Shown here piece by piece: positions 14,243 through 34,429 of a stretch of DNA of 64,000 bases (its first letter is position 1; each line of letters opens with the position of its first letter). The stretch covers positions 1 through 64,000 of the forward strand of contig JAJPHT010000039.1 in assembly GCA_021325135.1 (NCBI GenBank), in the 5' to 3' direction. The stretch is from Pseudomonadota bacterium. GTDB lineage: Archaea > Thermoplasmatota > SW-10-69-26 > JACQPN01 > JAJPHT01. The notes under the pieces are model-generated. The model searched no databases and was not told the origin of the DNA. It worked only from the letters and a program-made list of their open reading frames with translations. The translations under genes were made by a program, and so were the position numbers.

Positions 14243-14243
14243 C

Positions 14244-14985: not shown

Positions 14986-15002
14986 GTTTGCCCGCAGCGG
15001 TC

Positions 15003-16253
15003 CTACCCCATCGCCAGCAGGAAATCCCCGGGAACGCCGCCCGTCCACGACACCGTGGCGCTCGTGGCCGCCGCCGGGACGGCGCCATACGTGGTCGCCC
15101 CCATGTGGTCGCAGCGCAGCGTCACGGCGCCCGCGGACCAGCAGACGGAGTAGTCGGAGGCGGGCGCGTTGGCGTAGACGAGGAGCGCGGAGTCGGGCCC
15201 GGGCGTGAGCGAGAAGAACTTCCCTTGGCACCCCGGAGGGACGGCGACGGGGGTCGCCAGCGCGGCGTCCGCTGCGGTGCCGTGGAGCGCCGCGCTGCAT
15301 CCGGGCGTGAAGGCCAGGAAGCGGTTCGCGGGCGCGCCGACGTCCCAGTGCGTCGCGAGGTAGGAGCCCGGCGCGGGGGCGGGGTCGAAGTAGTCGTCGT
15401 GGCCGCAGTCGAAGGGCGCGCCCACGGCGCAGGCGGTCCCCGAGTAGTCGGAGCGGCTGCCCCCGTCGGCGTAGCACATGATGTCGTTCCCGTCGTTGCA
15501 GTGGAACGCGCCCGAGGTGTGCTGCGCGTCAAGCTGCACGGCGCCCATGGTGTGGCCGCTCTCGTGGAGCAGCACGTTCCATCCGCAGCCGTACACGATG
15601 GCGAACATGTCGCCGCGGTTGTTGAGGTTGGCCGCGCCGGGGCGGCTGTCGGCGAAGATGGCGCCCTGGCCGCAGTAGCCCCCGACGCTTCCGTCGTACC
15701 AGACGACGTACTTCGTGTTGGCGTCGGAGTAGCCCCGCGCGTGCAGGTCGTTGACGATGCTGGAGTAGCTCGTGGCCGCGGCGGTGGCGCCGAGGTGCTC
15801 GATGGGCACGCTGGGCCGCCCGTCGGCGCCGCACGCGTAGGAGAGGCGGAGGCTCACGCCCAGGGCCGCGGCCTCGGCGCGCACGTGCGCGTTCGCCTGC
15901 TCGGCGTAGGTCTTCGCCGTCTCCACGCGCGTCGCGGAGCGGTCGACGCCGTCGGCGGGGTACGCGTACATGAGCTGCGCGCGCGGCGTGCCCGCGGGCG
16001 CGCACGAGACGGGGAGCGGATCGGGGTTGGGCGGGATGGAGACGCCGACGCTGGCGGGCTCGGCGGGGTCGGGCCCGTGGGTGAGGACGGAGGTCCCGTC
16101 CGCGAGCGCGACGAGCCACCCCCCTTCGACGGGGCACGAAGGGCCCTGGTAGGGCACGAGGGTGAATCCCGGGCAGGGGGCCGCGTCCGCGGCGATCCCG
16201 AAGGAGCCGAGGGCGGCCGCGACGAGGACGAGGGCCAGGGTGGGCGCGCGCAA
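15003..16253 (-). CDS. Secreted zinc metalloprotease-like protein (HExxH)
   Basis: Signal peptide; LLHESGHTMGAVQ, HCNDGNDIMCY, FDCGHDDYF; TTG start chosen within ORF 15003..16649. Confidence 0.8.
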   Translation of the reverse strand: MRAPTLALVLVAAALGSFGIAADAAPCPGFTLVPYQGPSCPVEGGWLVALADGTSVLTHGPDPAEPASVGVSIPPNPDPLPVSCAPAGTPRAQLMYAYPADGVDRSATRVETAKTYAEQANAHVRAEAAALGVSLRLSYACGADGRPSVPIEHLGATAAATSYSSIVNDLHARGYSDANTKYVVWYDGSVGGYCGQGAIFADSRPGAANLNNRGDMFAIVYGCGWNVLLHESGHTMGAVQLDAQHTSGAFHCNDGNDIMCYADGGSRSDYSGTACAVGAPFDCGHDDYFDPAPAPGSYLATHWDVGAPANRFLAFTPGCSAALHGTAADAALATPVAVPPGCQGKFFSLTPGPDSALLVYANAPASDYSVCWSAGAVTLRCDHMGATTYGAVPAAATSATVSWTGGVPGDFLLAMG

Positions 16254-16318
16254 GGGAGAAGCCTCGGCGTGCCCACCCGGGGCCGGACCATAACAGCTGT
16301 GCCGAGACCCTAGCTGGA

Positions 16319-16639
16319 TCAGGGCAGCACGACGGTCTTCTGGGCGGCGCAGGAGACGTGCCCCGGGAGAAGAGGCGTCGGCGGCGTCACCTCGTAGGTC
16401 GTGCAGACGTAGGCCGTGCCGCCGAAGCAGCTCGTGCCCGTGAAGCCCGCGTAGGCGCCGACCTTCTCGGTGGGCAGCGTCTTGCACGCGATGATCGGGT
16501 CGAGGCACGCGAGGAGCGAAGGCCCGCAGGGCGGCGGGCAGCCCCCCGTGCTCTCGGGGCAGATCTGGGCGGACGCCAGCGGCGCCACGGGGGCGAGCGC
16601 AAGGACGGCGAGCGCGGCGAGGAGAAGGGCGCGGAGCAT
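16319..16639 (-). CDS. Small secreted 8-Cys protein
   Basis: MLRALLLAALAVLALAPVAPLASA signal then 8 Cys in about 82 aa. Confidence 0.7.
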   Translation of the reverse strand: MLRALLLAALAVLALAPVAPLASAQICPESTGGCPPPCGPSLLACLDPIIACKTLPTEKVGAYAGFTGTSCFGGTAYVCTTYEVTPPTPLLPGHVSCAAQKTVVLP

Positions 16640-16650
16640 CCCTCTCCACC

Positions 16651-16893
16651 TCACGGCAGCGTCGCGATGGGCTGGCAGCTCCAGCCGACCTCGTGGTGGA
16701 CGACGGTGCCCTGGCACTCGTACAGGGTCACGCTGTTGCCGCACTCCGCGCCGGTGCGCACGTCGGCGACGTGGATCATGCCGACGCTGACGTTGAGGTA
16801 GCCGCACACCGCGGACGCGGTGGGGACGAGCGCGGTGGTCGCGCCCAGCGTCGCGCCGATCACGAGCAGGCTGAGGAGAAGGGTGGTCTTCAT
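16651..16893 (-). CDS. Small secreted 4-Cys protein
   Basis: MKTTLLLSLLVIGATLG...PTASA signal; GGAGG upstream. Confidence 0.7.
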   Translation of the reverse strand: MKTTLLLSLLVIGATLGATTALVPTASAVCGYLNVSVGMIHVADVRTGAECGNSVTLYECQGTVVHHEVGWSCQPIATLP

Positions 16894-16963
16894 GAGTGGC
16901 CTCCGCGGCCGCCACGCACGCGGCGCGCCATAATCCCTGCGGAGGCGCACCCGGACGGGGACC

Positions 16964-17731
16964 TCAACGGGTCAGGCTGCGCATCAACGTCTCGGGCGTG
17001 ATGATGCCCAGGACGCGGGCGTCGCCGTTGCTCACGATGGCGTAGTCCCAGCTCTCCAGCGCGCGCTCGACCTCCTCGAACGTCGCGTGCGGGGGCACGA
17101 TGCCCACGGGCTCGTCGGCGAAGCCGGACACGGGGTCCTTGAGCGGGTGATGGCGCTCTCCGATGGCGTCCATGCGCCCCTTGTCGCCGTTGTTGGCGCC
17201 CAGCACGACGACGTCGCGCCGGTGGATGACGCCGCGGATGCGCCCGTCGCCGTCCAGCACGGGCAGGTGGTCCACGTACTCCTGGGAGAACGCGTGCAGC
17301 GCCTCGCCGAGCGTCTGCTCCATGCGCAGCGTCGCGATGGGGACCGCCAGGTCGCGCGCCTTCCGATCGGCCGCGCCGCGCTCGCGCGCGACGTCGATGG
17401 CGCTCACGTACCCCGCGAGCTTGCCCTTCTTGTCCTCGATGGGGAGGAACGCGGCGCGAAGCTCCGCCATGCGGCGCGCGACCTCCTCCAGCGACGCGGT
17501 CTCGGGCAGCGCGCGCGTGACGAGCGAGTAGCTCTCGACCTTCGCGCGCTCGTCGAGCCGGCGGCCCGTGGTGATGGCGCGGTCGTTGACGAGCCCGAAG
17601 GGCCTGCCCTCGTCGACGACGATGGGCAGCGTGTCGGTGTCGCCCTTGATCCAGCCCATGACGGAGTGGATCCCGTCGCGCTTGTCCACGGCCTTGAAGT
17701 CGGTGCGGAGGAAGGGGCCCAGCTCGCTCAT
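16964..17731 (-). CDS. CBS-domain protein (four CBS repeats)
   Basis: LPIVVDEGRPFGLV, LPIEDKKGKLAGYVS, LPVLDGDGRIRGVI, VLGIITPE. Confidence 0.88.
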   Translation of the reverse strand: MSELGPFLRTDFKAVDKRDGIHSVMGWIKGDTDTLPIVVDEGRPFGLVNDRAITTGRRLDERAKVESYSLVTRALPETASLEEVARRMAELRAAFLPIEDKKGKLAGYVSAIDVARERGAADRKARDLAVPIATLRMEQTLGEALHAFSQEYVDHLPVLDGDGRIRGVIHRRDVVVLGANNGDKGRMDAIGERHHPLKDPVSGFADEPVGIVPPHATFEEVERALESWDYAIVSNGDARVLGIITPETLMRSLTR

Positions 17732-17785
17732 CGTGAACACTGGCCTCCGATGAGGGATAACCCTGTCGAGTCCCCGCAAAAAGGC

Positions 17786-20700
17786 CTATCCAGCCCGCTT
17801 GGCGAGCAGCACCTTGGCCCACGCCAGGACGCGCTCCCCTTCGCGGCGTGCCTCGATCTCCACGGACTCGCCGTCCAGGAGGCCGAAGCGCTCCTTCGCC
17901 GCGCCGCGCAGGTCCACCTGCACGTGGCCGTTCTGGATGCCGAGGCGCACGTCGTGCAGGTTCACCGAGAGGCCGACGCCCAACGCCTTGAGGACCGCCT
18001 CCTTCGCGCTCCACGCCAGCGCGACCGCGGCGTGGCGCGCGGCGCCCTGCGGGAACGCGGCGCGCTCCTCGGGCGTGAACGCCTCGTCCTCGAACGCGGG
18101 GGCGCGCGGCTCCACGACCTCGACGTCCACGCCGACGCGCTCGCGCCGCGCGTCGAAGACGCTGGCGACGGCGACGCCGCCCGCGTGGCTCAGGGTGAGG
18201 CCGCGCTCGCCGTGCGCGAGGGGCGCGCCGTCGGCGCCGCGCTGGATGGGCATCGCGGTCCACGGGCGCTCGTCCCCGGCGGCGCGCAGCGCGGCCTTGG
18301 CGGCGAGCGTGGCGGCGAGCCACTCCTCCTTGCGCTTGGCCGCCGGCAATGCGCTGAGCGCCGCCTGCTCCTCCGAGGCGAGCAGGCCGCTCCAGAGGCC
18401 CGGGCGCTCCAGCAGGGCGCGCGCGGCGTCCACGGGGACGCGCATGACGCGCGAGCCGCCCAGCGTCGTCTCCTCGTGGGGCCACGGCGCGGGGCCCACC
18501 AGCGCGGAGGCGCCCGTGACGATGAGCGCGACGCCCTTCATCTCGACGGCGACCTTGCCGTCCACGAGGCACTGCACGTCGCCCTTGACGCGGTGGTCCT
18601 CGACCCGCGCGTTGAGGACGCGGTAGACCGCGCGCCCCGGCTCAAAGGGCCCGAAGAGGGAGACGCGCGCGACGCGCTCGGGAAGCGCCATGACGCTGCC
18701 CAGGGCGAGGCCCCAGAGGCCCAACGCCTGGAACGCGCCTTCCATGAGGGCCGCGGCGGGCGGGACGCCAGCGGCGGGCGCGCGGCCCTCGGCCTCCATG
18801 CCGTCCCACGACGCGCGGGAGGCCTTTGATAGCACCTGGAAGGCGGGCCCGTGGAAGAAGGGCGGATAGATGCGGTCGAACGACCACGCCCAGCCCGGGG
18901 CGTCGCGGACGGGGGGCGCGGGGCCCGCGTCGGGCAGCAGGCGCGCGGTGAAGTGCGTGCGCGGCTGCTTCACGGGGCCGGGAGGGATGGACGTGACCGA
19001 GGCCCTTCCGTCGGCCTCGACCTTGACCGTGATGTCGACCGGCTGGTCCCGGAGCAGCTTCACGGGGTACGCGAAGTGGACCTCCTCCAGCGCGGCGACG
19101 GGCGTGGGGCTGGCGCTGGTCATGGCGCTCATGCCCATGACGCCCGCGAGGTAGGGCACGCCATCCACCCGGTGGTCGTTGAGCGCGGGCTCGGAGGCGC
19201 GCAGCGTCTGCGTCCCCGAAGCCTGCGGCGCCTCCTCGTGGTGGGCTTGTTCAAGGCCCCCCAAGCCTTTCGCGAGCACGACCTCGGGCTCGTCGAGGCG
19301 CGCCAGCTCGCTGAGGAAGGCGCTGACGCCCTCCGCGGTGGTGATGGGCTCGACGCCCGCGGCCTTGAGCACGGTGAGCGTGCTGCCCTTGGTGGCCATG
19401 CCCACCTCGCCCCACGGGCCCCAGGCGAACACGGCGGCGGCGACGCCCTTGGCGCGCAGCGCGCGGGCGAGCTTCGCGATGGCGTCGTTGGCGGCGCTGT
19501 AGTCGGCCTGCGCGGCGTTGCCGTAGCGGCCCGCGACGCTGCCGAACATGACGAAGAACGCGGGGTGGTCCTTTTCCGTGAGGCGCGCGAGGGTGAACGC
19601 GGCCTCGGCCTTGGGCCTCCACGCGCGGTCGAAGGCGCCCTCGTCCTTGTCGGCGAGGCGCTTGGACTCCTCCAGGCCGGCGGCGTGCAGCACGCCGTGG
19701 ACCTTGCCGTGCCGCAGGCGCACGTCGGAGAGCGCGCGCTCCAGCGCGGCGGCGTCGCCCGCGTCGGCCTGCACGTACTCGACGGTGGCGCCCGCGCTGC
19801 GCAGGTCGCGCAGATTCCGCGCGATCTCGGCGCGGGCGCGCAGGGGAGCCACCATCTTCTCGATGGCGACGGGCGTCACGCGGTCGCCCTTGGCCTTGAG
19901 GTCCGCCATGCCCTGGTCCTTGGCGCGAGCCTCGTCGAAGGAGAGGTCTGCGTCGGTGGGCGCGGGGGTGCGGCCCAGGAGCACGAGCCTGGGCTTCTGC
20001 GGCGCGAGGGCCTTGAGCGCCTCGGCGGTGATGCCGCGCGCGCCGCCGGTGACGACGAGCACCGCGCCCGTGGGCAAGGTGGGGTGCTGGCCGTCGGTGG
20101 TCCCGGCCTCGATGGTGCGCACGACGACGCGGCCCCGCGCCGAGCGGCCCACCTCCACGAGCGACTTGTCGACCTTCAGCTCGGCCTCGACGTGGCGCAC
20201 GCGCGCGGCGACGTCCTCGGAGGGGTCGAGGTCCAGCGCGCGGACCCACGCCTTGGGGAACTCCGCGGCGAGGGACTTCGCCAGGCCCGTGACGCCGCCC
20301 TGCTCCGGGTGCGCGGCCTTGTCGATGCCCTGGTGGCCGCCCATCTCGGTCAACGCGAGGATGCCCAGCTTGCCCGCGTCCAGGTCGGCGGCGCGGCTGC
20401 GCGCGAAGAGGAACAGCTCCTTGGCGGGTCCGCTGAAGAGGGCGATATCACCCGCGGCGTGCGGGTACTTGTGGCGCAGCGCCTCGGCCAGCGCGCCGTG
20501 CCCGACGACGAACGCGCTGCGCGCCGCGCTCCCTTCCGCGGGCGCGGGGCTCACGCGCGGCACGCGGCGCACGAGGCCGCCACCCTTGTAGGGCGCGACC
20601 ATGGCGGTGTCCAGGGGCGGCGCGCTCGCGGCGGCCTGCGCAGGGACCGCGCGCCCGGCGTGCGTGGAGACGAAGCCCGCGACGTGGCTGATGGTCGGGT

Positions 20701-23700
20701 AGTCCTTGAGGTTCACGCCCTCGATCCGGGGGATGCCGAAGGCCTCGCGCACCTCGCCGAAGATCTCCGCCTGCTTCACGGTGTCAATCCCGAGGTCCGC
20801 CTCCATGTCGAGGTTGGGGTCCAGCATCTCGGGCGGGTAGCCGGTCTTCGACGCGATCATCGCGGTGACCTTGGCCAGGACGTCGTGCGCGGCTCCGGGG
20901 CCCTTGCCTGGGAGCGGCGTCGGGGCGGTGGCGGCGGGGTTGGGCGCGACCATGGCGGGCGGCGCGTTGAAGGGAACGGGCGGCGTGGGCGCGACGGCGG
21001 CCTCCGCGGTCACCGGGGCGCCCATGCGCGAGACGAGGTAGTCCGCGACCTTCGCCAGCGTCGGGATGTCCTTGAGCGTGAGCTTGTCGTCGCGCCCGAT
21101 GCCGTAGCTCTCGCGGAGCATGCCGAAGATCTCGGCCTGCTTCACGGTGTCAATCCCGAGGTCGGCCTCCATGTCGAGGTTCGGGTCGAGCATCTCCTGG
21201 GGGTAGCCCGTCTTCTCGGCGACGAGGGCCATCACCTTGCGGAGCACGTCGTCGCGGGAGGCGCCGGCTGGAGCGGCCGCGGGGGCGGGGCTCGGCGCCG
21301 CGCGCGCGGGCGCAGGCGTGGGGGCCTCCACCTTCACCGGGACGGCCGTGGGGACCGCCCCCGCCGGGGCGCTCACGCGCAGGACCCTGCCCTGCATCGC
21401 GGCCTTGGCGCCGGGGGCGCCCACGCTCTGGTCCAGGAAGGATTGATAGCGCGCCGGGTCCGCGACGCGGGCGTCGCCCTGCGCCATGCGCTCGAAGAAC
21501 GCCATGGCGAGCTGCGAGCCGAAGCCGGCGCTGAAGCGCATGGCGAAGCGGCGCTGGTGCGCGCCCCCCTTGCTGAGGTTGAGGTCCGCGAACTCGGGGT
21601 CGGTGTCGCGCAGGTTCGCGATGGGCGGCACCTTGCCGAGCTGGAGCGCCTTCACCGCGAGGGCGTCCTCGATGCCGGCGCCCATGGGGTGGCCGGTGAA
21701 GCCCTTGGTGTTGGTGACGAGCACCTTCGTCGCGCCGCTTCCGAAGGCCTGCCGCATGGCGGCCGCCTCCGCGCTGGCGCTGCCGCCGCGGGCGGGCGTG
21801 TACGTCTCGTGGCTGACGAAGATCGTCTCGGGCCCGAGCGCGTCGGGCGTCGTGCCCAGGCGCTTCGCGGCGGTCTCCACGAGCGCGCGCGCCTCCTTGG
21901 CGATGTGCTCGACGTGGAGGCGGCTGCCGTGGTACGCGCTGTTGGCGATGCGCGTCGCGACGAGCCGCGCGACGGGGACCATGCCGCGCGCCTCGACGTC
22001 CTCGCGGCGCTCCAGCACGAGGCCCACGGCGCCCATGCCGATGATCATGCCATGCCGGCGCCGGTCGAAGGGCAGGGCGCCCTCCTCGACGGAGCCCGCG
22101 GTGGTGGCCGCGCCCGAGACGAGGAAGCCGCTGCCGATCCACTCCAGCAGGTTGTCGCTGGTCACGTCGTCCGCGCCCACGACGACGACGCGCCGGGCGC
22201 GGCCCGTGCGCATCCAGTCCTCGGCGATGGCGATGGCCTGCGTGCTGCTGCTGCACGCGGCGTTGACCTGCGTGTTGGGTCCGCGGGCGCAGATCGTCTC
22301 GGCAAGCTCCGCGTGGCCCAGCGAGAGGATGCTGAAGAGGAAGTGCCGGTTGAACGCCTCCACCTTCTCGGCGTCGCCCGCGATGCGGTGAAGCTCGCCC
22401 GCGTGCTTCGCGTAGAAGCCCGACACCTTGGACTTCCTGTCGGCGGGCACGGCGTCCAGAAGCTCGTGGTAGAGCGCGTCAAGCTCGGTCAGCGTCGCCT
22501 TCGCGTAGCGGCGCGCCAGGTGGCGGCTGACCTCCTGCACGAAGTTGTCGTAGCCGGGGAAGGCGCTGGCGAAGATGATGCCCGTGTCGTCCTGGAGGTG
22601 GGGAGGCAGCACCCAGTCGCCGGGCAGGATCTTCCCGGTGGTCGTGCGCTTCATCTCCTGCACCATGGGGATGCCCGCGTCCCGGAGCGCCTCGTAGGCG
22701 GCCGCGATGGCGAGCTTGCTGGTGATATCAAGGGTCTTGAGCAGCTTGGGGTCGACCTGGTAGTCGCCCTGCATGTCGAGCCCGCCGCGGCGGCCCGCGA
22801 GCTTGAGGACCTCGCTGGCGTCCTTCACGGGCTCCATGCGCGGCTCGCCCTCGCCCTTGACGAGGCGCACGATGTCCTTGTCCAGGAAGCGGCCCGCCCA
22901 CATGGAGTCGAGCCGGTCGATGCGGTTCTCGCCGCGGAAGAGCGTCTCGAAGTTGTCGTCGCTGAACACGCGGCGCGCGCCGCCGGGGAGGCCCGCCGCG
23001 GCGCCGCTCACCACGACGTCCACCGGGAGGAGGCCGTAGCGGGAGAACGCTCCTTCGGCCTCCTTGAGGCGCGCGAGCTCGCGCTGGAACTGGTCGAAGC
23101 CCGCCTTGAGCGCGGCCTCCAGCGTGGGCTGCACCGCGCTGCGGAACGCCTCGTAGGTGCCGTCCGTCGGGCCGGCGAGCACGGTGGGGCGCGGCATGGG
23201 CGCGGGCTGCGCGACGGGCATCGCCTCGGTGGCGTCCCCGGCGGGCAGGTCCAGCGCGAAGCCCAGCGCGCCCATCCTGGCGGCGGCGTCGAGGAAGGAC
23301 GCGAGGTCGCCGCGCTTGGGGTGGTTCGTGGTGACGGCGACGGCGGCGCTGCCCAGCGTGGCCTCGACGAAGCCCGAGAGCGCGCGCTTGGGGCCCACCT
23401 CGACGAAGACGGTGGCGCCGGCGGCCTGCATGGCCTTCAGCTCCGCGATCCACTCGACGGGCGCGGCGACCTGCTTGGAGAGGATGTCGCGGATGGCGTT
23501 GGGGTCCGCGGGGTAGGGCGTCGCGTCGACGTTGGTGAAGCAGGGGATTCTGGGCGCGCGGAAGGAGAGGCGGTCCAGCACGCGGCGCAGGGGCTGGCTC
23601 GCGGGCGCCACGATGCTGGTGTGGAAGGCCGCGCTCACGTTGAGCTGCATGACCTCCACGCCCATGCTGCGCGCGACCTCCATGGCCTTCTGCACGGCGG

Positions 23701-26700
23701 GCGTCTCGCCCGCGATGACAGTCTGGACGGGGCAGTTCTTGTTGGCGGCCACGACGTAGCCGGGCACGCGCTTGAGCACCTGCTCGACCTGGTCGGGCCC
23801 GGCGCTGACGGAGGCCATGAGCCCCTTGTCGGGCACCTGCACGCCGGCCATCTCCTTGCCGCGGGCGGAGACGGCGAGGAGCGCGTCCTCGAACGATAGC
23901 ACCTCGGCCGCGACAAGCGCCGCGTACTCGCCCAGGCTGTGGCCGCCCACCATGTCGGGGCGGATGCCGTGCTCGGCGAGGAGGCGGAAGATGGCGACGT
24001 CCGCCGCGAGCATCGCGGGCTGCGTGACCTCGGTCTGCTTGAGGGACTCTTCGGCGCGCGCGACGGCGGCGGCGTCCTTGGGGTCGACCCAGAGGAGCGT
24101 GGTGAGCTTGCTGCCCAGGAGCGGCTCCAGCACGCGGTCCGCCTCGGCGAACGTCTCGCGCACGATGGGGTAGCGCTTCGCGAGCTCGCGGCCCATGTTG
24201 GCGTACTGCGAGCCCTGGCCGGGGAAGAGGAACGCGACCTTGCCGCGGGGCTGCCCTTCGCCGAACGAGGCGCCCTTGACCTTGAGGGGGAGCGCCTGGC
24301 GCCCCTTGGGGTCGAGGATCAGCGGAGCGGCGGTCTCCAGCGCGGAGGCCAGCGTGGCGCGGTCCTGGGCCCCCACGCCGAGGCGCACGCTGCGCGCGTG
24401 GGCGCGGGGCGTGCGGGCGTGGCGCGCGGCCTGGTCCAGCGTGGCGGCGGACTTCACGGCGGCGACGGCGGCCTTGGCCTCGGCCGCGAGACCCTCGATG
24501 CTATCAGCGGCGATGACGACGACCTCGCCCTCCATCTCGGGCGCGAGGCGCGGCGGGGCGCGGGGCGCGGCCGCAGGCGCGGGCGCCGCGGCGCGGGGCG
24601 CCAGGTGGTACTCGGGGAGGAACTCCTCCAGGATGACGTGGAAGTTCGTGCCGCCGAAGCCGAACGCGGACACCGCGGCGCGGCGCGGCTCTCCGTTGGC
24701 GGGCGCGGGCCACGGCTCGACGGAGGTCTGCACCTTGAAGGGCACCTTGCTCCAGTCGATGTTGGGGTTGGCCGCGCGGAAGTTGATGCTGGGCGGCAGG
24801 ACCTTGTGGTGGATGGCTAGCGCGGCCTTGAGGATGCCCGCCGCTCCCGCGGCGCTCTTGAGGTGGCCGATCTGGCTCTTGACGCTGCCCAGCGCGACGC
24901 TGCGCGGCGGCATGGGGCCGAACACCTCGGCGATGCTCTCCACCTCGACGACGTCGCCGACCTTCGTCGACGTTCCGTGCGCCTCGATGAGCTGGACGTG
25001 CTTCGGCTGGACCTCGGCGACCTGGAAGGCGCGCTGCACGGCGAGCTCCTGGCCCGCGGGGTTGGGTGCGGTGATGCCCTTGCCCTTGCCGTCGCTGCTG
25101 CTGCCCATGCCGCGGATGACGGCATAGACCTTGTCGCCGTCCCTCACGGCCTGTGACAGCTTCTTGAGAAGGAGGATCGCGACGCCTTCGCCCATGACGA
25201 AGCCGTCGGCGCCCGCGTCGAAGGGGCGGCTGCCGGTGGGGGAGAGCGCGCCGATCTTGCAGAACTTGACGTAGGTCGCGGGGTCCATGCTGCGGTCCGC
25301 GCCGCCGCAGAGCACCATGTCGGCCTCGCCGCCGAGGATGGCCTTGACCGCGGTGTCCAGCGCGGCGTGGCTGCTGGCGCACGCGGCGTCGGTGGTGAGG
25401 TTCTTGCCCGCGAGGTTGAGCACGTTGGCCAGGCGGCCGGCGATGACGTTTGATAGCTCGCCGGGCATCGTGTCCTCCGTGATGGGGGGCAGCGAGGCCT
25501 TGATCTGCGCCTCGGCGCGCGCGACCTGCTCGGGGGGCAGCGACTTGCGAAGCTCGGCGGTGAACTCCGCGAGGTGCATGCGCTTATTCGTCTCGTCCTT
25601 GCGCTCGCCGCCCAGGGAGTTGCCCAGGATGACGGCGCAGCGCTGGCGGTCGAACGGCTTGCGGTCGTAGCCCGCGTCGGCGAGCGCCTCGGCCGCGGCG
25701 GCGAGGGCCATCTGCTGCACGGGGTCGAGGGCCTTCGCCGTGTTGGGCGGGATGCGGAACTTCAGCGCGTCGAACTTGAACCCGGTGATGAAGCCCCCGA
25801 TCTTCGTGTAGGTCTTGTCCTCCTTGGTGGGGTCGGGGTCGTAGTGGATGGAGGCGTCCCAGCGGTCCGCGGGCACCTCGACGATGCAGTCCACCTGGTT
25901 GAGGACGTTCTGCCAGAACTCGCCGGCGCTGTTGGCCTTGGGCAGCACGGCGCCCACGCCGATGATGGCCACCGCCTCCTCGGGCGGGACCGTCTCGAAC
26001 TGGCGCGAAGCGGACGCGGCGACGGGCACCGCGTTGGGGCGCGTGTGGCCGATGGGCGCGGCGGGGGGCTCCACGGCGCGCGGGTCCGGCATGGCCTCGA
26101 CCTTCGCGGGCGCGGCCGCGGGGGCGGGGCTCGGCGCGGGCGCGTTGCCCATGCGGGAGGAGAGGTACTCGGCGACCTTGCCCAGCGTGGGGATGTCCTT
26201 GAGCGTGAGCGTGTCGTCGCGCGGCAATTGATAGCTTTCGCGCAGGATGCCGAAGATCTCGGCCTGCTTCACGGTGTCGATGCCCAGGTCGGCCTCCATG
26301 TCGAGGCCCGGGTCGAGGAGGTCCTTGGGGTAGCCCGTCTTCTGCGCGACGAGGTCGATGACGCGGGCGAGGACTTCGCCGGAGGCCGCGGCGGGAGGGG
26401 CCGCGGGCGGAGCGACCGTGGGCGCGGGGACCGGCGTCGGGGGCGGCGCCGGCGCGGGAGGGGGGGCCTGCGCGGGCGCTCCCGCATCCATGGCCACCTG
26501 CGCGAGCGCGGCGGCGAGGGAGCCCGCGCGGCGCGCGAGGAAGGGCGCGAGCAGCGCGTCGCGGCCCACCTTCAGGCCGCTGGGGAGCGTGGCGTGGCCC
26601 GTCGCCTGGAAGTCGGCGGCGCTGAGGCGCGCGAGGGCGGCCTTGTCGTCCGCGGAGAGGGGCGACTCGGGGAGGAGCCAGAGTTGCGCGTCGAGGACGA

Positions 26701-26938
26701 CGCCGGAGGCGCCCGCCTCCGCGACGGCCTTCAGCGTCGCGCGGTCGAGGCCGCCGTGGGCGAGGGGCTGGCGGCCCGCGAGGCGCTTGACCTCGGCGAC
26801 GGTCTCCGCGCTGGTCTTGCCGCTGGCCACGGGGCGCCCGTCCACGGTGGAGGCGAGGGCGGCGATGGGCGTGGCGCCGGCGGCCTGCACGCGCGCGGCG
26901 TACTCGGCGTTGCCGTTCGTGACGACGTAGAGCTTCAT
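17786..26938 (-). CDS. Type I FAS/PKS-like megasynthase: [ER remnant]-ACP-KS-AT-KS-ACP-ACP-KR-DH-PPTase
   Basis: KS1 DAACASS/EAHGTST/GHLKSAAG; AT GHSLG and SAAFH; KS2 NAACSS/SHETYT/GHPMG; three copies of DMEADLGIDTVKQAEIFG; KR TGGARGI and YSAAN; DH HRVDGVP and HGPAFQ; PPTase VGVDVE...WSAKEAVLKA. Confidence 0.95.
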   Translation of the reverse strand: MKLYVVTNGNAEYAARVQAAGATPIAALASTVDGRPVASGKTSAETVAEVKRLAGRQPLAHGGLDRATLKAVAEAGASGVVLDAQLWLLPESPLSADDKAALARLSAADFQATGHATLPSGLKVGRDALLAPFLARRAGSLAAALAQVAMDAGAPAQAPPPAPAPPPTPVPAPTVAPPAAPPAAASGEVLARVIDLVAQKTGYPKDLLDPGLDMEADLGIDTVKQAEIFGILRESYQLPRDDTLTLKDIPTLGKVAEYLSSRMGNAPAPSPAPAAAPAKVEAMPDPRAVEPPAAPIGHTRPNAVPVAASASRQFETVPPEEAVAIIGVGAVLPKANSAGEFWQNVLNQVDCIVEVPADRWDASIHYDPDPTKEDKTYTKIGGFITGFKFDALKFRIPPNTAKALDPVQQMALAAAAEALADAGYDRKPFDRQRCAVILGNSLGGERKDETNKRMHLAEFTAELRKSLPPEQVARAEAQIKASLPPITEDTMPGELSNVIAGRLANVLNLAGKNLTTDAACASSHAALDTAVKAILGGEADMVLCGGADRSMDPATYVKFCKIGALSPTGSRPFDAGADGFVMGEGVAILLLKKLSQAVRDGDKVYAVIRGMGSSSDGKGKGITAPNPAGQELAVQRAFQVAEVQPKHVQLIEAHGTSTKVGDVVEVESIAEVFGPMPPRSVALGSVKSQIGHLKSAAGAAGILKAALAIHHKVLPPSINFRAANPNIDWSKVPFKVQTSVEPWPAPANGEPRRAAVSAFGFGGTNFHVILEEFLPEYHLAPRAAAPAPAAAPRAPPRLAPEMEGEVVVIAADSIEGLAAEAKAAVAAVKSAATLDQAARHARTPRAHARSVRLGVGAQDRATLASALETAAPLILDPKGRQALPLKVKGASFGEGQPRGKVAFLFPGQGSQYANMGRELAKRYPIVRETFAEADRVLEPLLGSKLTTLLWVDPKDAAAVARAEESLKQTEVTQPAMLAADVAIFRLLAEHGIRPDMVGGHSLGEYAALVAAEVLSFEDALLAVSARGKEMAGVQVPDKGLMASVSAGPDQVEQVLKRVPGYVVAANKNCPVQTVIAGETPAVQKAMEVARSMGVEVMQLNVSAAFHTSIVAPASQPLRRVLDRLSFRAPRIPCFTNVDATPYPADPNAIRDILSKQVAAPVEWIAELKAMQAAGATVFVEVGPKRALSGFVEATLGSAAVAVTTNHPKRGDLASFLDAAARMGALGFALDLPAGDATEAMPVAQPAPMPRPTVLAGPTDGTYEAFRSAVQPTLEAALKAGFDQFQRELARLKEAEGAFSRYGLLPVDVVVSGAAAGLPGGARRVFSDDNFETLFRGENRIDRLDSMWAGRFLDKDIVRLVKGEGEPRMEPVKDASEVLKLAGRRGGLDMQGDYQVDPKLLKTLDITSKLAIAAAYEALRDAGIPMVQEMKRTTTGKILPGDWVLPPHLQDDTGIIFASAFPGYDNFVQEVSRHLARRYAKATLTELDALYHELLDAVPADRKSKVSGFYAKHAGELHRIAGDAEKVEAFNRHFLFSILSLGHAELAETICARGPNTQVNAACSSSTQAIAIAEDWMRTGRARRVVVVGADDVTSDNLLEWIGSGFLVSGAATTAGSVEEGALPFDRRRHGMIIGMGAVGLVLERREDVEARGMVPVARLVATRIANSAYHGSRLHVEHIAKEARALVETAAKRLGTTPDALGPETIFVSHETYTPARGGSASAEAAAMRQAFGSGATKVLVTNTKGFTGHPMGAGIEDALAVKALQLGKVPPIANLRDTDPEFADLNLSKGGAHQRRFAMRFSAGFGSQLAMAFFERMAQGDARVADPARYQSFLDQSVGAPGAKAAMQGRVLRVSAPAGAVPTAVPVKVEAPTPAPARAAPSPAPAAAPAGASRDDVLRKVMALVAEKTGYPQEMLDPNLDMEADLGIDTVKQAEIFGMLRESYGIGRDDKLTLKDIPTLAKVADYLVSRMGAPVTAEAAVAPTPPVPFNAPPAMVAPNPAATAPTPLPGKGPGAAHDVLAKVTAMIASKTGYPPEMLDPNLDMEADLGIDTVKQAEIFGEVREAFGIPRIEGVNLKDYPTISHVAGFVSTHAGRAVPAQAAASAPPLDTAMVAPYKGGGLVRRVPRVSPAPAEGSAARSAFVVGHGALAEALRHKYPHAAGDIALFSGPAKELFLFARSRAADLDAGKLGILALTEMGGHQGIDKAAHPEQGGVTGLAKSLAAEFPKAWVRALDLDPSEDVAARVRHVEAELKVDKSLVEVGRSARGRVVVRTIEAGTTDGQHPTLPTGAVLVVTGGARGITAEALKALAPQKPRLVLLGRTPAPTDADLSFDEARAKDQGMADLKAKGDRVTPVAIEKMVAPLRARAEIARNLRDLRSAGATVEYVQADAGDAAALERALSDVRLRHGKVHGVLHAAGLEESKRLADKDEGAFDRAWRPKAEAAFTLARLTEKDHPAFFVMFGSVAGRYGNAAQADYSAANDAIAKLARALRAKGVAAAVFAWGPWGEVGMATKGSTLTVLKAAGVEPITTAEGVSAFLSELARLDEPEVVLAKGLGGLEQAHHEEAPQASGTQTLRASEPALNDHRVDGVPYLAGVMGMSAMTSASPTPVAALEEVHFAYPVKLLRDQPVDITVKVEADGRASVTSIPPGPVKQPRTHFTARLLPDAGPAPPVRDAPGWAWSFDRIYPPFFHGPAFQVLSKASRASWDGMEAEGRAPAAGVPPAAALMEGAFQALGLWGLALGSVMALPERVARVSLFGPFEPGRAVYRVLNARVEDHRVKGDVQCLVDGKVAVEMKGVALIVTGASALVGPAPWPHEETTLGGSRVMRVPVDAARALLERPGLWSGLLASEEQAALSALPAAKRKEEWLAATLAAKAALRAAGDERPWTAMPIQRGADGAPLAHGERGLTLSHAGGVAVASVFDARRERVGVDVEVVEPRAPAFEDEAFTPEERAAFPQGAARHAAVALAWSAKEAVLKALGVGLSVNLHDVRLGIQNGHVQVDLRGAAKERFGLLDGESVEIEARREGERVLAWAKVLLAKRAG

Positions 26939-27765
26939 CAGACGGGTCCCTCGGGGGGGTTGAGTCGGGGCTCGATGAGCACGCGGTCCATCTCGGGGGG
27001 CGCGCCGACGCTGAAGTAGCCCGCGTCGACGTAGATCGTCTGCCCGGTGATGCCGCTGCTATCAGAGGAGAGGAGGAAGCGCGCCGCGTGGGCGACGTCC
27101 GCCTGCGTCACGTTGCGGCGCAGGGGGGTGTTGCTGGCCATCCAGTCGAGGATCTGGTCGAAGCCCGGGACGCCCGAGGCGGCCAGGGTCTTCACGGGGC
27201 CTGCGCTGACGGCGTTCACGCGGAAGCCCATGGGGCCCACGCTGGCGGCAAGCTCGCGGACGAGCTGCTCCAGCGCCGCCTTGGCGGTGCCCATGATACG
27301 ATATCCCGGGACGGTGCGCTCGGCGCCCAGGTAGGTGAGCGTCACGACGGCGGCGTTGGGGTTGAGCTTGGGCAGGCCGTGGCGCACGACGCGGATGAGC
27401 GAGTAGGCGCTGACGGTCATGGCGACGCCGAAGTCCTCCTGCGTCGTCTCGGTGATGGGCTTCATCAGCGCCTCGGCGGGCGCGAAGGCGACGGCGTGCA
27501 CGATGCCGTCGTACTTGCCGGTGAGCTTGGCGTGGAACGCCTTGGTGGAGTCCTCGCTGGCGAGGTCGCACTCCTCCATCTGGTCGATCCACTTCTGCTC
27601 CTTGGCGAGCTGGAGCACGCGCGACATGAAGCGCTTCTGGTAGGCGAGCGTGCAGGTGGCGCCGCGCTCCGCGAGGTCCTTCGCGATGGCCCACGCGAGG
27701 GAGGTGTCGCTGGCCACGCCGTACACGAGGAATCGCTTGCCTTGGAGGTCGTTCACGTGGATCAC
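26938..27765 (-). CDS. fabI: Enoyl-ACP reductase (FabI family SDR)
   Basis: GVASDTSLAWAIA, HAVAFAP, LTYLGAERTVPGYRIMGTAKAALE, SAGPVKTLAA, ITGQTIYVDAG; stop overlaps the megasynthase ATG; GTG start at 27765 or 27756. Confidence 0.93.
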   Translation of the reverse strand: MIHVNDLQGKRFLVYGVASDTSLAWAIAKDLAERGATCTLAYQKRFMSRVLQLAKEQKWIDQMEECDLASEDSTKAFHAKLTGKYDGIVHAVAFAPAEALMKPITETTQEDFGVAMTVSAYSLIRVVRHGLPKLNPNAAVVTLTYLGAERTVPGYRIMGTAKAALEQLVRELAASVGPMGFRVNAVSAGPVKTLAASGVPGFDQILDWMASNTPLRRNVTQADVAHAARFLLSSDSSGITGQTIYVDAGYFSVGAPPEMDRVLIEPRLNPPEGPV

Positions 27766-27788
27766 GTCCCAATCGGGGCTTCGACGGT

Positions 27789-29381
27789 TTAAAGGGGAAT
27801 GTTCCCGTGCTTGCGAGGCGGCCGCTCGACGTGCTTCGAGGCGAGGCGCGCCAGGTGGCGGGCCACGTGCTGGCGCGTCAGGGCCGGGTCGACGATGTCG
27901 TCCACGAAGCCAAGCTCGGCCGCGAACATGGGGTTGCCGAAGCGGTCGCGGTAGCCGGCCTCCAGCTCCTTGCGGAAGTCGGCGTCGGCGTTCTTCAGCT
28001 CCCGGCGGTGGAGGATCTGCACGGCGCCCTGCGCGCCCAGCACGGCGATCTCCGCCTGGGGCCACGCGAGGTTGACGTCGCTGCGCAGGTGCTTGCTGCA
28101 CATGACGATGTACGCGCCGCCGTAGGCCTTGCGCGTGACGACGGTGATCTTGGGCACGGTGGCCTCGCAGTAGGCGTAGAGGAGCTTCGCGCCGTGGCGG
28201 ATGATGCCGCCGTGCTCCTGCTCGCGCCCGGGGAGGAAGCCGGGCACGTCCACGAGGCTGAGGAGGGGGACGTTGAACGCGTCGCAGAAGCGCACGAAGC
28301 GCGCGGCCTTCTCGGAGGCCTGCACGTCCAGCACACCCGCGAGCACCTTGGGCTGGTTCGCGACGATGCCCACGACGCGCCCTTCGACGCGGCCGAAGCC
28401 GACGACGACGTTGCGCGCCATCTCGGCGTGGATCTCGAAGAAGCTGTCCCGATCGAGGATGCCCGCCATGACGTCGCGCATGTCGTAGGGCATCGACGGG
28501 TCGGGCGGGACCACGGTGCGCAGCGCCTCGGGGTCGTGCGCGGAGATGGGCTCGTAGCGCGGCGGGTGCTCCAGGTGGTTCTGCGGCAGGTAGGAGAGGA
28601 GCGCGCGGATCTTGTCCAGCGTCTCCTCGTCCGTCTCGCCCGTGAGGTGGCAGACGCCCGAGTCGTTGGCGTGCACGTCCGCGCCGCCCAGCTCCTCGTG
28701 GGTCGTCTCCTCGCCCAGCACGGTCTTCACCACGTCGGGCCCGGTGAGGTACATGTACGAGGTCTTGCGCGTCATGAGGACGAAGTCCGTGAGCGCGGGG
28801 CCGTACACCGCGCCGCCGGCGCAGGGGCCCAGGATTCCCGCGACCTGCGGGATGACGCCCGAGGCGTCGACGTGGCGCTGGAAGATGTCGCCGTAGCCGC
28901 CCAGCGCGGCGACGCCCTCCTGGATGCGCGCGCCGCCAGAGTCGTTGAGCGCGACGAGGGGCACGCCGGTGGCGATGGCCTGCTCCATGATCTTGCAGAT
29001 CTTCCGCGCCTGCGCGCTGCCCAGCGAGCCGCCCGAGACGGTGAAGTCCTGCGCGTAGACGCACACGTCGCGGCCGTGGACCTTGCCGTAGCCCGTGACG
29101 ACGCCATCGCCCGGGTGCGGGTCCTGCGGCAGGCCGCGGCTGAGCCCCTGGTGGACGGCGAAGGAGTCGGTCTCCATGAAGGAGCCCGGGTCCAGGAGGT
29201 AGTCCAGGCGCTCGCGGGCCGTCATCTTGCCCTTCGCGTGCTGCGCCGCGACCTTCTCGGGGCCGCCGCCTTCGCGGGCGCGCTGGCGGGCCAGCTCGAT
29301 GGGGTCCAGCGTGAGGCGGCCCGACGAAGGGGTGACGCGCACGATGGAGGGCTTCTGTGGCGCGGCAGTGGGGACGGTCAT
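27789..29381 (-). CDS. Acyl-CoA carboxylase carboxyltransferase (beta) subunit, PccB/AccD family
   Basis: GKMTARER, QDFTVSGGSLG, DSGGARIQEG, GPCAGGAVY, DVPGFLPG, RKAYGGAY, RKHGNIPL. Confidence 0.95.
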   Translation of the reverse strand: MTVPTAAPQKPSIVRVTPSSGRLTLDPIELARQRAREGGGPEKVAAQHAKGKMTARERLDYLLDPGSFMETDSFAVHQGLSRGLPQDPHPGDGVVTGYGKVHGRDVCVYAQDFTVSGGSLGSAQARKICKIMEQAIATGVPLVALNDSGGARIQEGVAALGGYGDIFQRHVDASGVIPQVAGILGPCAGGAVYGPALTDFVLMTRKTSYMYLTGPDVVKTVLGEETTHEELGGADVHANDSGVCHLTGETDEETLDKIRALLSYLPQNHLEHPPRYEPISAHDPEALRTVVPPDPSMPYDMRDVMAGILDRDSFFEIHAEMARNVVVGFGRVEGRVVGIVANQPKVLAGVLDVQASEKAARFVRFCDAFNVPLLSLVDVPGFLPGREQEHGGIIRHGAKLLYAYCEATVPKITVVTRKAYGGAYIVMCSKHLRSDVNLAWPQAEIAVLGAQGAVQILHRRELKNADADFRKELEAGYRDRFGNPMFAAELGFVDDIVDPALTRQHVARHLARLASKHVERPPRKHGNIPL

Positions 29382-29544
29382 GGGCACCCCGCGCGGCGAG
29401 GCCAGGCTTCGGGTAAATGCCTTTTCGTCGTGACAAGGAGTGAAAACGAGTGAACGCCACCGTGGGAATCGGCGAGCGCCGGGGGGCGCATCGGCGGTCT
29501 TGTGGGGGACTGTGGGGGGCACAATCCTGGCGTCTTGGTCACCT

Positions 29545-29582
29545 CGTTGGCGCGACGACGCCACGGCGCCACGACGTGACGA
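29545..29582. repeat. Tandem 8-mer CGCCACGA-family array
   Basis: CGCGACGA CGCCACGG CGCCACGA CGTGACGA, intergenic. Confidence 0.55.
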
Positions 29583-29682
29583 TTCCCCCAAGCATCGCGC
29601 TGAGGGGGAAGCATCCGCTCAAAGAAGTGAGAGAATGGAAGAAGAAAGGGGCCCCACCGCGCAGGGCCCCGGAGCCGGGCGC

Positions 29683-30525
29683 CTACCAGGCGAGGTTCTC
29701 GGCGCGGATGCCCTGGTCCGAGAAGGCCTGGGGCAGCGTGCCCTCGTTGGCCCACTTGTAGAGGCCCGCGACGAGGATGCCGTCCACCGCGCTGTTGACC
29801 GCGGAGAGGACGATCCAGTAGACCACCGCGACCGCGATGAACGCGACGCCCAGCACGACGGACGCGCCCATGGCGAGGACGCCCAGGAAGAAGGGCACGA
29901 GGCCCAGCAGGCCCAGGAAGAAGAAGATGATCCCGGTCGTGGCCACGCCCGTGAGGCTCTCGCCCCAGCTGCGCTTCATGAGGCCCATGCTGCCCTTGAT
30001 CGCGTCGAAGGGCCCGACGTCCTGGAAGACGAGGACGGGCACGACGAAGAAGACCGCGACGTTCCAGCCGAACTCCAGGAAGCTGACCAGGATGCGGGCC
30101 AGGATGTTGTCCTTGGCCTGGTCGCGCAGGATGCGGAAGATGATGCCCACGGTCGCCGCGACGACGGCCCACTGCAGGATGCGGCCGATGCGGCTCCACG
30201 ACTTGCGCAGGCCGTCCTTGAGGACGGGGTCGCCGCCGTTGAAGCGGATGGTGGCCATCTCGATGACGGCCGCGTTGAAGAAGATCACGATGGCGTAGAC
30301 CACGACGTAGATCGCGAAGATCGCGAGGTAGCCGGCGAGGCCGAGGCCGCCGCCGTCGGCGCCGCTGAAGAGGCCGAGGCCCCAGGCGCCGAGGCCCAAG
30401 GCGACGACCGCGATGATCTGGAGGACACCCGCGAGCAGCGGGAGCGCGACCATCTCCTTGTCAAGGCTGAGGACCTTGAAGGAGGCCTTGGTGAGACTCC
30501 AACCACGGGCGATGCGTTCGAACAT
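29683..30525 (-). CDS. Membrane protein (DUF6159-like)
   Basis: MFERIARGWSLTKASFKVL..., AIKGSMGLMKRSWGE, 5-6 TM segments. Confidence 0.8.
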   Translation of the reverse strand: MFERIARGWSLTKASFKVLSLDKEMVALPLLAGVLQIIAVVALGLGAWGLGLFSGADGGGLGLAGYLAIFAIYVVVYAIVIFFNAAVIEMATIRFNGGDPVLKDGLRKSWSRIGRILQWAVVAATVGIIFRILRDQAKDNILARILVSFLEFGWNVAVFFVVPVLVFQDVGPFDAIKGSMGLMKRSWGESLTGVATTGIIFFFLGLLGLVPFFLGVLAMGASVVLGVAFIAVAVVYWIVLSAVNSAVDGILVAGLYKWANEGTLPQAFSDQGIRAENLAW

Positions 30526-30680
30526 GAGGATTTGACACCTCTCGGGGGCGGCGATTCCTGGCCCGCGGATATAAGGCTAGCGGGCAACGTGGGGTGCGGA
30601 AGGAAGGCGCAACCGGCCGGCGACGGGCAGGCGTTTCTCCGGCGGCGCGGCCCCCCGGCCGGAGCCCGCCCGGCGTGGGG

Positions 30681-31133
30681 TCAACGGGCGAGTCGCCGCG
30701 CCGCCGCCAGCAAAGCCGTGTCGAGCAGGGCGGCGACTGCGCCCACCAGGCAGCCGCCGACGAACCCGAACGCGGCCGCCTCCAGCGAGAAGAGGTAGGC
30801 GATGGGCGGCGCGCGGCCCGAGATGAACGATGCCGTGAGGGCGATCCACACGAACGACGCGCCCACCGCGCCGCCCCACACGCCGCCCACGCCCATCGCC
30901 TCGCGCAGCGGCTTCTCCCGCATCTGGACGAGGGCCTGGCGCGTGGCCCCGAGGGTGAGCCCCCAGAGGACGAGGAAGAGCGCGACGCCAGGGAGCGTGC
31001 CGATCCCCTGGAGCAGCTGCCCCAGCGTGCCGGCGCGGTGCAGCGCGAGGACGAGGGCGCCCACCAGGAGCGAGACGTGGAGCGTCGCGAGGCCCACCGC
31101 CTCCAGCCAGCCCGCCTCGCGCGCCTCATCCAT
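30681..31133 (-). CDS. Hypothetical 4-TM membrane protein
   Basis: Hydrophobic helices; overlaps the stop of the upstream gene. Confidence 0.65.
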   Translation of the reverse strand: MDEAREAGWLEAVGLATLHVSLLVGALVLALHRAGTLGQLLQGIGTLPGVALFLVLWGLTLGATRQALVQMREKPLREAMGVGGVWGGAVGASFVWIALTASFISGRAPPIAYLFSLEAAAFGFVGGCLVGAVAALLDTALLAAARRLAR

Positions 31134-31506: not shown

Positions 31507-31569
31507 GCAGGGCCGTCGCTGGCGGAAGGGAGAATGGTTTCGCACCGAAGCCCACTTGCGCGGCAGGGG

Positions 31570-31713
31570 TCAACGCTGGGCGAGCCAGGCCAGCGTGGCC
31601 TCGGCGTTGCGCCGGGCGCGGCGGATGACGCGGAGGTCCTCTTCGATCTCCGCGCGGAACTGCGTGAGGAACGCCCGAAGCTCAGGGTCCATCTCGCGGC
31701 CTTCCATGATCAT
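31570..31713 (-). CDS. Small helical hypothetical protein (47 aa)
   Basis: GGAGG SD; MIMEGREMDPELRAFLTQFRAEIEEDL... Confidence 0.45.
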   Translation of the reverse strand: MIMEGREMDPELRAFLTQFRAEIEEDLRVIRRARRNAEATLAWLAQR

Positions 31714-34388: not shown

Positions 34389-34429
34389 CGGGGCGGGCGA
34401 GGGGTGGACCCCGGAAAGAGGTTTGTCCC

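Follow-up and report, generated by a model that had tools for sequence, protein, structure and literature searches.

How an archaeon might come to make fatty-acyl chains is the question raised by a 64,000-nucleotide stretch of DNA (the window; contig JAJPHT010000039.1, positions 1 to 64,000 of the forward strand, 72% G+C). The contig belongs to the metagenome-assembled genome (MAG) of a soil organism, deposited as a Pseudomonadota bacterium and placed by GTDB in the archaeal phylum Thermoplasmatota (GCA_021325135.1; 94% complete, 5.6% estimated contamination). Textbook archaea have isoprenoid ether membranes and no carrier-protein fatty-acid synthesis. The window carries an operon of three genes that encode a carboxyltransferase, a FabI-type enoyl reductase and a multidomain megasynthase. 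We consider that this operon probably specifies an iterative type I synthase of fatty-acyl chains, self-contained and belonging to the Type R, PfaA-like family, that has resided for a long time in the Thermoplasmatota; its chains would be passed to ester glycerolipids.

The coordinates of all features and the scores of the individual domains are collected in Table 1. The three genes are intact, tightly packed and co-oriented on the minus strand, as a preliminary description made from the letters alone had reported, and the public gene call on the 101-kb ENA contig yields the identical three genes. The fabI and megasynthase genes overlap in the sequence TGATG, where the A of the fabI TGA is also the A of the megasynthase ATG, and the two are predicted to be translationally coupled. 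The carboxyltransferase is a PccB/MmdA-like beta subunit of acyl-coenzyme A (acyl-CoA) carboxylase and presumably supplies malonyl-CoA.

Domains were assigned by Pfam and NCBIfam searches, carried out with the whole megasynthase and with pieces of it. The order is as follows: FabK-like stub, acyl carrier protein (ACP), ketosynthase (KS1), acyltransferase (AT), second ketosynthase (KS2), ACP, ACP, ketoreductase (KR), dehydratase (DH) and Sfp-type phosphopantetheinyl transferase (PPTase). The motifs and the KS, KR and PPTase calls of the preliminary description were all recovered: GHSLGE of the AT (from residue 999, with Ser1001), AAFHT of the AT (at residue 1103; the AAFH motif is of the malonyl type), the Cys-His-His triads, YSAAN, GVDVE (residue 2936) and WSAKEA (residue 2976). 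The domain content agrees with its claim that the genes provide for the supply of extender units, their loading, condensation, both reductive steps, dehydration and activation of the carriers. Its coordinates were correct; it had overlooked the second KS, the presence of three carriers, the threonine (Thr) of these carriers and the vestigial N-terminal domain.

The second KS retains Cys1562, His1710 and His1750, and the Cys-His-His triad was invariant in an alignment of 34 diverse family members, which sets KS2 apart from a classical chain-length factor (CLF), in which this Cys is lacking. The internal carrier pair scored 70.3 bits with PF00550 (cut-off 20.8). The N-terminal carrier is present in the genomes G002 and G003, absent from G006 and G007, and limited to the genus among the loci examined. 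In the DH, the catalytic His of the HxxxGxxxxP motif is invariant and lies in DHRxDGxPxLPG, and an invariant Glu-x3-Gln replaces the usual Asp-x3-Gln/His (alignment of 40 relatives). The best Foldseek match of its AlphaFold model (predicted local distance difference test score, pLDDT, 83.7) was the DH of CurH (3kg7, E 2e-15, probability 1.0), and the domain is modelled as a double-hotdog dehydratase of the polyketide synthase (PKS) type. The PPTase has the two-lobed Sfp-type architecture with the Mg-binding GxDxE and W/FxxKE motifs, aligns with the PPTase of fungal fatty-acid synthase (FAS) and with PptT, and scored 25.8 bits with PF17837 (cut-off 27). No close solved structure was found for the whole megasynthase.

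The carriers depart from the ordinary ACPs for which the preliminary description had taken them. All three share the motif DLGIDTVKQAEIF, in which Thr222, Thr1931 and Thr2053 (carriers 0, 1 and 2, respectively) lie within DLGIDTVKQ and align with the serine (Ser) that is modified in the PigH ACPs and in mitochondrial ACP. The DSL-type Ser of a phosphopantetheine site is absent from all three, and the motif has no Ser. In the 150 best representative clusters (50% identity), 433 of 461 carrier domains have Thr here; among the motif instances at the named loci, it is found in 212 of 213 from bacteria and in 35 of 35 from archaea. Thr is a family-wide hallmark, and its conservation across carriers reflects purifying selection on a functional residue and not decay.

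Of the 91 loci compared, 43 have a PPTase with intact motifs downstream of the synthase; in about 32 of 75 full-length family representatives the PPTase is fused to it. In a search of the genome itself, its sole PPTase and its sole PP-binding domains were all inside the megasynthase; with no other carrier in the genome, the fused PPTase has no other possible client. The simplest reading would be that a dedicated PPTase acts on the Thr carriers.

That reading has to be weighed against an alternative, in which the Thr carriers are not phosphopantetheinylated: they would be structural or use another attachment, and the enzyme would be inactive in the classical sense or act on CoA-bound substrates. 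Characterised carriers have a phosphopantetheine-bearing Ser where all three domains have Thr and, to our knowledge, S36T ACP is not modified by E. coli AcpS. The core carrier chemistry is therefore unproven, and so is the 'ACP-type' chemistry of the preliminary description. In the literature, no report was found of the carrier motif or of Thr-linked phosphopantetheine. We nevertheless regard the alternative as unlikely, given the selection on Thr described above, the recurrence of an intact downstream or fused PPTase even in bacterial hosts, where AcpS must be present already, and the lack in this archaeon of any PPTase client outside the megasynthase. A fuller proposal can be put forward tentatively: phosphopantetheine would be linked to Thr by a co-evolved PPTase, in a system insulated from AcpS and Sfp, and fatty acids made de novo would be delivered to PlsC and GpsA for a heterochiral membrane of glycerol-3-phosphate (G3P) esters and glycerol-1-phosphate (G1P) ethers in the Thermoplasmatota and possibly in the Heimdallarchaeia.

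The contig that carries the operon is archaeal and not chimeric. That the cluster is bacterial DNA, whether mis-binned, joined in a chimeric contig or transferred very recently, would accord with the bacterial type of all the enzymes and with the 5.6% contamination estimated for the MAG; it is made very improbable by the following observations. The contig also bears the archaeal ribosomal protein genes and a gene for a PGF-CTERM protein (Table 1). The ribosomal genes had been named in the preliminary description together with a geranylgeranyl reductase (GGR) family gene, which was found only as a weak GGR-like FAD protein. In the probable source run, the assembly pieces along positions 12000-31900 are evenly covered at 20-29x, and a 4429-base contig without a mismatch (positions 14870-19298) joins the ribosomal flank to the megasynthase gene. 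Independent mine metagenomes, obtained in a different study, contain pieces of the ribosomal part and of the megasynthase at a matching 3-6x. The order L1, CBS, megasynthase, FabI, carboxyltransferase, DUF6159 and MBL is kept in G002, another species of the genus, the megasynthase of which is 84% identical. At third codon positions, the megasynthase gene has a G+C content (GC3) of 0.97 and the flanking genes have one of 0.86-0.99, with a codon-usage cosine of 0.967. No chimeric join or coverage break was seen, and the codon style is that of the flanks, as the preliminary description had stated.

The depth of one segment stands apart: over positions 27936-29263, in the carboxyltransferase gene, the summed contig depth climbs to 270-750 in all four runs. 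This is likely due to conserved sequence of other organisms passing the 90% likeness filter, and not to copy number.

The phylogeny of KS2 also bears on residence. The sequence falls in a Thermoplasmatota clade (SH-aLRT 99), and the archaeal rows are not part of the main bacterial clade (64 rows, SH-aLRT 99). A single archaeal clade was not rejected by the approximately unbiased (AU) test (p-AU 0.265; reduced set of 52 rows, LG+G4, with the archaeal group named after the tree had been seen). The tree was rooted with the KS1 paralogue, for which the outgroup branch had a length of 10; the root is unreliable, and we therefore infer long residence and no direction of transfer.

The operon was compared with known systems. 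Type R synthases were catalogued as a single pfaA homologue with the order KS-MAT-CLF-ACP(3-6)-KR and a PPTase downstream, in Koribacter, Solibacter, Elusimicrobium and Roseiflexus; the Koribacter cluster includes a gene for an acetyl-CoA carboxylase subunit (Shulse and Allen, 2011, PLoS One 6:e20146, PMC3098273). The product was given there as unknown, and neither archaea nor Thr carriers are mentioned (PMC3098273). The megasynthase of the window has the corresponding order KS1-AT-KS2-ACP-ACP-KR, with a DH and an N-terminal ACP in addition (three carriers in all), and its PPTase follows as a C-terminal fusion. The nearest bacterial homologues, from the lineages of the catalogue (Korobacteraceae, Bryobacteraceae, Roseiflexaceae and Elusimicrobiota), have the same architecture and are 48-52% identical in KS2; in the tree, the type is represented by these homologues. 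The differences lie in the archaeal host, the fused PPTase, the FabI gene in the operon, the upstream carboxyltransferase, the extra N-terminal carrier, the FabK-like stub, a DH unlisted in the 2011 paper and a 'CLF' that has Cys-His-His. The family agrees with Type R in architecture and host range, and the megasynthase can be classed as a member of Type R or at least as a close relative.

PfaA (TIGR02813) was the best NCBIfam match of the megasynthase, at 968.4 bits, below the cut-off of 1010.1. Both have KS-AT, tandem carriers, a KR and a dedicated Sfp-type PPTase. Unlike the PfaA systems, the operon has no PfaB, no PfaC (a KS-CLF with a FabA-type DH pair) and no PfaD, and its carriers bear Thr; the DH is of the PKS type, and there is therefore no obvious route to cis double bonds. 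A PfaA-type synthase of polyunsaturated fatty acids (PUFA) was rejected on the score and on the missing PfaB, PfaC and PfaD.

Enediyne polyketide synthases (PKSE) have the order KS-AT-ACP-KR-DH-PPTase with a single KS, and are encoded beside an enediyne cassette and a thioesterase. They have the shared domains in the same order, including the C-terminal fused PPTase, and differ from the megasynthase described here, which has a second KS, several carriers and an enoyl reductase and has no cassette or thioesterase nearby. This assignment was rejected on account of the second KS, the reductase and the missing cassette.

The family is far wider than this one genome. KS2 and the carriers were searched against 1.84 billion representatives, which gave 1250 clusters at E <= 1e-30, and a scan of species genomes placed relatives in at least 554 of them. 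The hosts include Acidobacteriota, Chloroflexota, Myxococcota, Actinomycetota (the cultured Planobispora takensis), Gemmatimonadota, Elusimicrobiota and Thermoplasmatota. All 8 genomes of this archaeal family have a megasynthase of the kind, as do 106 of the 301 Thermoplasmatota genomes sampled: it is present in 42/42 genomes of family f28, 10/10 of f30 and 23/24 of f20, and was not found in f8 (0/36) or f18 (0/36). The megasynthase is therefore no singular archaeal oddity, since Type R had been catalogued in bacteria in 2011 and about a third of the sampled Thermoplasmatota, as well as Heimdallarchaeum, carry the family. Peculiar to the window and its genus are a fused PPTase, an extra N-terminal carrier and a shrunken FabK-like stub. 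Our literature search found no follow-up on Type R and no PKS in papers on the archaeal lipid divide, nor did it turn up any account of the synthase in an archaeon or of the Thr in its carriers.

Two further archaeal occurrences were recorded. The closed Asgard genome of Ca. Heimdallarchaeum aukensis (CP084166.1:479788-501254, locus L036) has the same cluster, comprising a carboxyltransferase, an NMO-type reductase, KS-AT-KS, a Thr carrier, a KR and a PPTase. The sequences of loci L109 and L110, from two small Thermoplasmatota genomes (G025 and G036), group in the KS2 tree with marine Myxococcota, 'Deltaproteobacteria' and bins labelled Enterobacterales (SH-aLRT 97); their placement apart from the other archaea could reflect a separate transfer or mislabelled bins.

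Enoyl reduction appears to be supplied at the archaeal loci by two non-homologous routes. A FabI gene adjoins the synthase gene here and in G002, G007, G025 and G036 (and at one Elusimicrobiota locus), and an N-terminal domain of the NMO/FabK type is fused to the synthase in G015, G016 and Heimdallarchaeum. With the probes used, neither FabI nor NMO/FabK was detected at three complete Thermoplasmatota loci (L030-L032), and most bacterial loci have neither reductase beside the synthase. The presence of an enoyl reductase at most archaeal loci argues that full reduction is required there.

The N-terminal stub bears on the same step. Residues 1-150 align with the longer N-terminal domain of G007, G015 and G016, and that of G016 takes the form of a FabK-like TIM barrel, its best Foldseek hit being FabK 2z6j (E 2.9e-8); the stub is therefore read as the shortened remnant of a reductase-like barrel. 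A role for the stub as a docking site for FabI was rejected as unsupported: relatives with a fused reductase and without FabI have the homologous domain too. In the sister family, the megasynthases of G016 (L113:15639-17669) and G015 (L111:13110-15116) open with two tandem FabK/NMO-like barrels, the first of which is degenerate and missed by Pfam and the second of which is the detectable NMO domain. The swap of a fused FabK-type reductase for a FabI acting in trans, with the stub left behind, would illustrate how assembly lines of this kind are remodelled.

The remaining parts of a lipid pathway were sought in the rest of the genome. The window has no thioesterase, biotin carboxylase or biotin carboxyl carrier protein (BCCP), as the preliminary description had stated. 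A biotin carboxylase above the accC cut-off and an adjoining BCCP are encoded on contig C6, and this single pair is accompanied by three carboxyltransferase paralogues, one of which is in the operon (the others are at C23:68342-69802, just past the window, and at C12:79619-81064). The sharing of one biotin carboxylase recalls the shared alpha subunit of the actinobacterial acyl-CoA carboxylases.

Five matches to PlsC-family acyltransferases were found in the genome and none in four archaeal control genomes; PlsY was not found in the genome. One plsC gene forms an operon with gpsA on contig C8 (60515-62069, 2-nt gap), and GpsA, the G3P dehydrogenase, scored 375 bits (cut-off 257). A G1P dehydrogenase is encoded on the same contig (C8:2389-2829; 498 bits, cut-off 413), and a geranylgeranylglyceryl phosphate (GGGP) synthase on C49. 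The G1P dehydrogenase and the PlsC-GpsA operon share one 70-kb contig and therefore belong to the same organism, not to different bins. The lipid role suggested in the preliminary description fits this gene content; of its proposal of a synthase of long-chain acyl or alkyl lipids, the archaeal, intact and self-contained cluster stands, and the type of product and its fate in a membrane or envelope remain inference. A 919-aa frame around the PlsC match on contig C38 was considered as a PlsB-like enzyme and rejected, as it looks like a spurious high-GC frame.

Among 41 relatives, a PlsC homologue was present in 19 of the 19 strong megasynthase carriers and in 3 of the 22 others, and the adjacency of PlsC and GpsA recurs in families f1, f4, f5 and f6. 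Across the 301 genomes, 77 had the megasynthase and GpsA, 29 the megasynthase only (mainly f20 and f35), 16 GpsA only (mainly f11) and 179 neither. The phylum-wide search for PlsC at 1e-25 was too strict, in that it under-counts f11, f20 and f28, and it was used for f25 and f35 only. The link between megasynthase and GpsA is strong without being obligatory.

The course of synthesis set out here is inferred from the gene content, as are the attachment of the cofactor to Thr, the length and saturation of the chain and the destination of the product. The carboxyltransferase, together with the C6-encoded biotin carboxylase and BCCP, would produce malonyl-CoA, from which the AT would transfer malonyl units to the carriers, activated by the fused PPTase (the only one of the genome), probably on the conserved Thr. 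Both Cys-His-His ketosynthases would condense iteratively, the KR and the PKS-type DH would process the beta-carbon, and the trans-acting FabI would reduce the enoyl intermediate; as FabI reduces the enoyl, the product would be a saturated or largely saturated long acyl chain. Because no thioesterase is present, the chain would most likely pass directly from the carrier to PlsC-family acyltransferases, which would acylate G3P made by the GpsA encoded beside one of them. The outcome would be ester glycerolipids next to isoprenoid ether lipids, and saturated fatty-acyl chains for glycerolipids are, on the genes present, the most likely product.

Besides the Thr of the carriers, several observations weigh against this proposal. 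The best NCBIfam FabI equivalog scored 234 bits on the reductase (cut-off 441), and the PlsC homologue is below its equivalog cut-off. No release enzyme was identified, neither a thioesterase nor another. GpsA is lacking in f20 (of which 23/24 genomes have the megasynthase) and in f35 (4 genomes), GpsA occurs in the absence of the megasynthase in roughly half of f11, and f25 has PlsC without either. The relatives are not independent of each other, so that the co-occurrence counts overstate the support.

Some of these points would also suit a different product, namely a specialised 'secondary' lipid or polyketide (hydroxy, very-long-chain alkyl, envelope, storage or signalling), with PlsC and GpsA serving otherwise. 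Families f20 and f35 have the synthase and no GpsA, and the archaeal entry steps (G1P dehydrogenase and GGGP synthase) are fully kept. The bacterial hosts of the family own a fatty-acid synthase of type II, and Type R cannot be the primary pathway there. Two active-looking ketosynthases and multiple carriers recall the PUFA, heterocyst-glycolipid and enediyne systems, and Type R was catalogued among secondary lipid synthases with widely differing products (Shulse and Allen, 2011, PMC3098273). This alternative is possible but rather doubtful: an enoyl reductase and a carboxyltransferase accompany the synthase at most archaeal loci, which fits the making of plain saturated chains from scratch, and the co-occurrence with PlsC and GpsA is strong at the level of families. 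In addition, the operon has no tailoring genes, as no FabA-type dehydratase/isomerase, thioesterase, reductase, NRPS (nonribosomal peptide synthetase) or glycosyltransferase gene was found in it by Pfam scan and gene calls. Synthesis of saturated acyl chains for ester glycerolipids is therefore the reading that we retain.

Table 1. Features of the window, in order of position (residues are those of the megasynthase)
Feature	Position	Strand	Remarks
PGF-CTERM protein	1811-2863	plus	C-terminal archaeosortase sorting signal
P1/L12 stalk protein	12908-13279		PF00428
Ribosomal protein L10/P0	13304-14242		archaeal-eukaryotic insertion domain
Ribosomal protein L1	14244-14885		
CBS-domain protein	16964-17731	minus	PF00571 and gene call; immediately downstream of megasynthase
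Megasynthase	17786-26938	minus	3050 aa, uninterrupted; putative iterative type I, Type R / PfaA-like family
Sfp-type PPTase	17789-18361	minus	residues ~2860-3050, C-terminal fusion; PF01648 64 bits
Dehydratase	18419-19261	minus	residues ~2560-2840; His2589; PF21089 26 bits, below cut-off
Ketoreductase	19379-20641	minus	residues ~2100-2520; GGARGIT, Tyr2480 (YSAAN); PF08659 119 bits
Carrier domain 2	20663-20890	minus	residues ~2017-2092; PF00550
Carrier domain 1	21023-21256	minus	residues ~1895-1972; PF00550
KS2 ('CLF' of the 2011 catalogue)	21569-23041	minus	residues ~1300-1790; weak PF00109 and PF02801
Acyltransferase	23279-24241	minus	residues ~900-1220; PF00698 155 bits; FabD TIGR00128 233 bits
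KS1	24584-25987	minus	residues ~318-785; Cys520, His654, His692; PF00109 and PF02801
Carrier domain 0	26153-26386	minus	residues ~185-262; PF00550 20.9 bits (cut-off 20.8)
FabK/NMO-like barrel remnant	26489-26938	minus	N-terminal stub; no Pfam match
FabI-type enoyl reductase	26938-27756	minus	PF13561 237 bits; Tyr-x6-Lys motif YRIMGTAK
Carboxyltransferase	27789-29381	minus	530-aa gene call; PF01039 635 bits; TIGR01117 711 bits, below cut-off of 999
GGR-like FAD protein	inside 33273-34823		weak

The operon neighbours of the megasynthase are the carboxyltransferase, FabI, the CBS protein and DUF6159. The CBS gene holds the same position in two other genomes of the genus (G001 and G002), and its product may be a regulator. 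A homologue of reprolysin-like (M12B) metallopeptidases, with weak matches, is encoded between the ribosomal genes and the CBS gene (15003-16649, minus strand). An open frame of 1884 codons (43973-49627, minus strand) has no Pfam or NCBIfam match and may be no gene, because long spurious frames are common in DNA of 72% G+C. An acyl-CoA dehydrogenase gene is present at 58960-60315 (minus strand) and another adjoins the biotin carboxylase gene on C6; the organism probably also degrades acyl-CoA.

For the lipid divide, the finding means that an archaeal chromosome stably holds a whole synthase of this kind together with malonyl-CoA supply, an enoyl reductase and a carrier-activating enzyme. Marine Group II and Asgard archaea were reported to have GpsA and PlsC-type acyltransferases beside archaeal lipid genes, from which the idea of a 'mixed membrane' arose (Villanueva et al., 2017, as cited in PMC7852524; Coleman et al., 2019, PMC6431249); the portions of those papers available to us hold no description of this megasynthase as the acyl source. 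The present genome differs in that it also retains the G1P dehydrogenase: it combines G1P and G3P dehydrogenases with PlsC-type acyltransferases, and the megasynthase gene set, the G1P dehydrogenase and the PlsC-GpsA operon occur together in one genome. The megasynthase would thereby offer the mixed-membrane hypothesis a concrete and testable acyl source.

For carrier chemistry, Thr is found at the cofactor position across a family recorded from at least 554 bacterial and archaeal species genomes. Cultured hosts exist in Planobispora takensis (NBRC 109077) and in the strains of Koribacter, Solibacter and Roseiflexus that the 2011 catalogue lists. Should the phosphopantetheine arm indeed be carried on Thr, it would be a new post-translational linkage and a carrier chemistry undescribed for any fatty-acid, polyketide or peptide synthase, and the family would provide a naturally orthogonal pair of carrier and PPTase.

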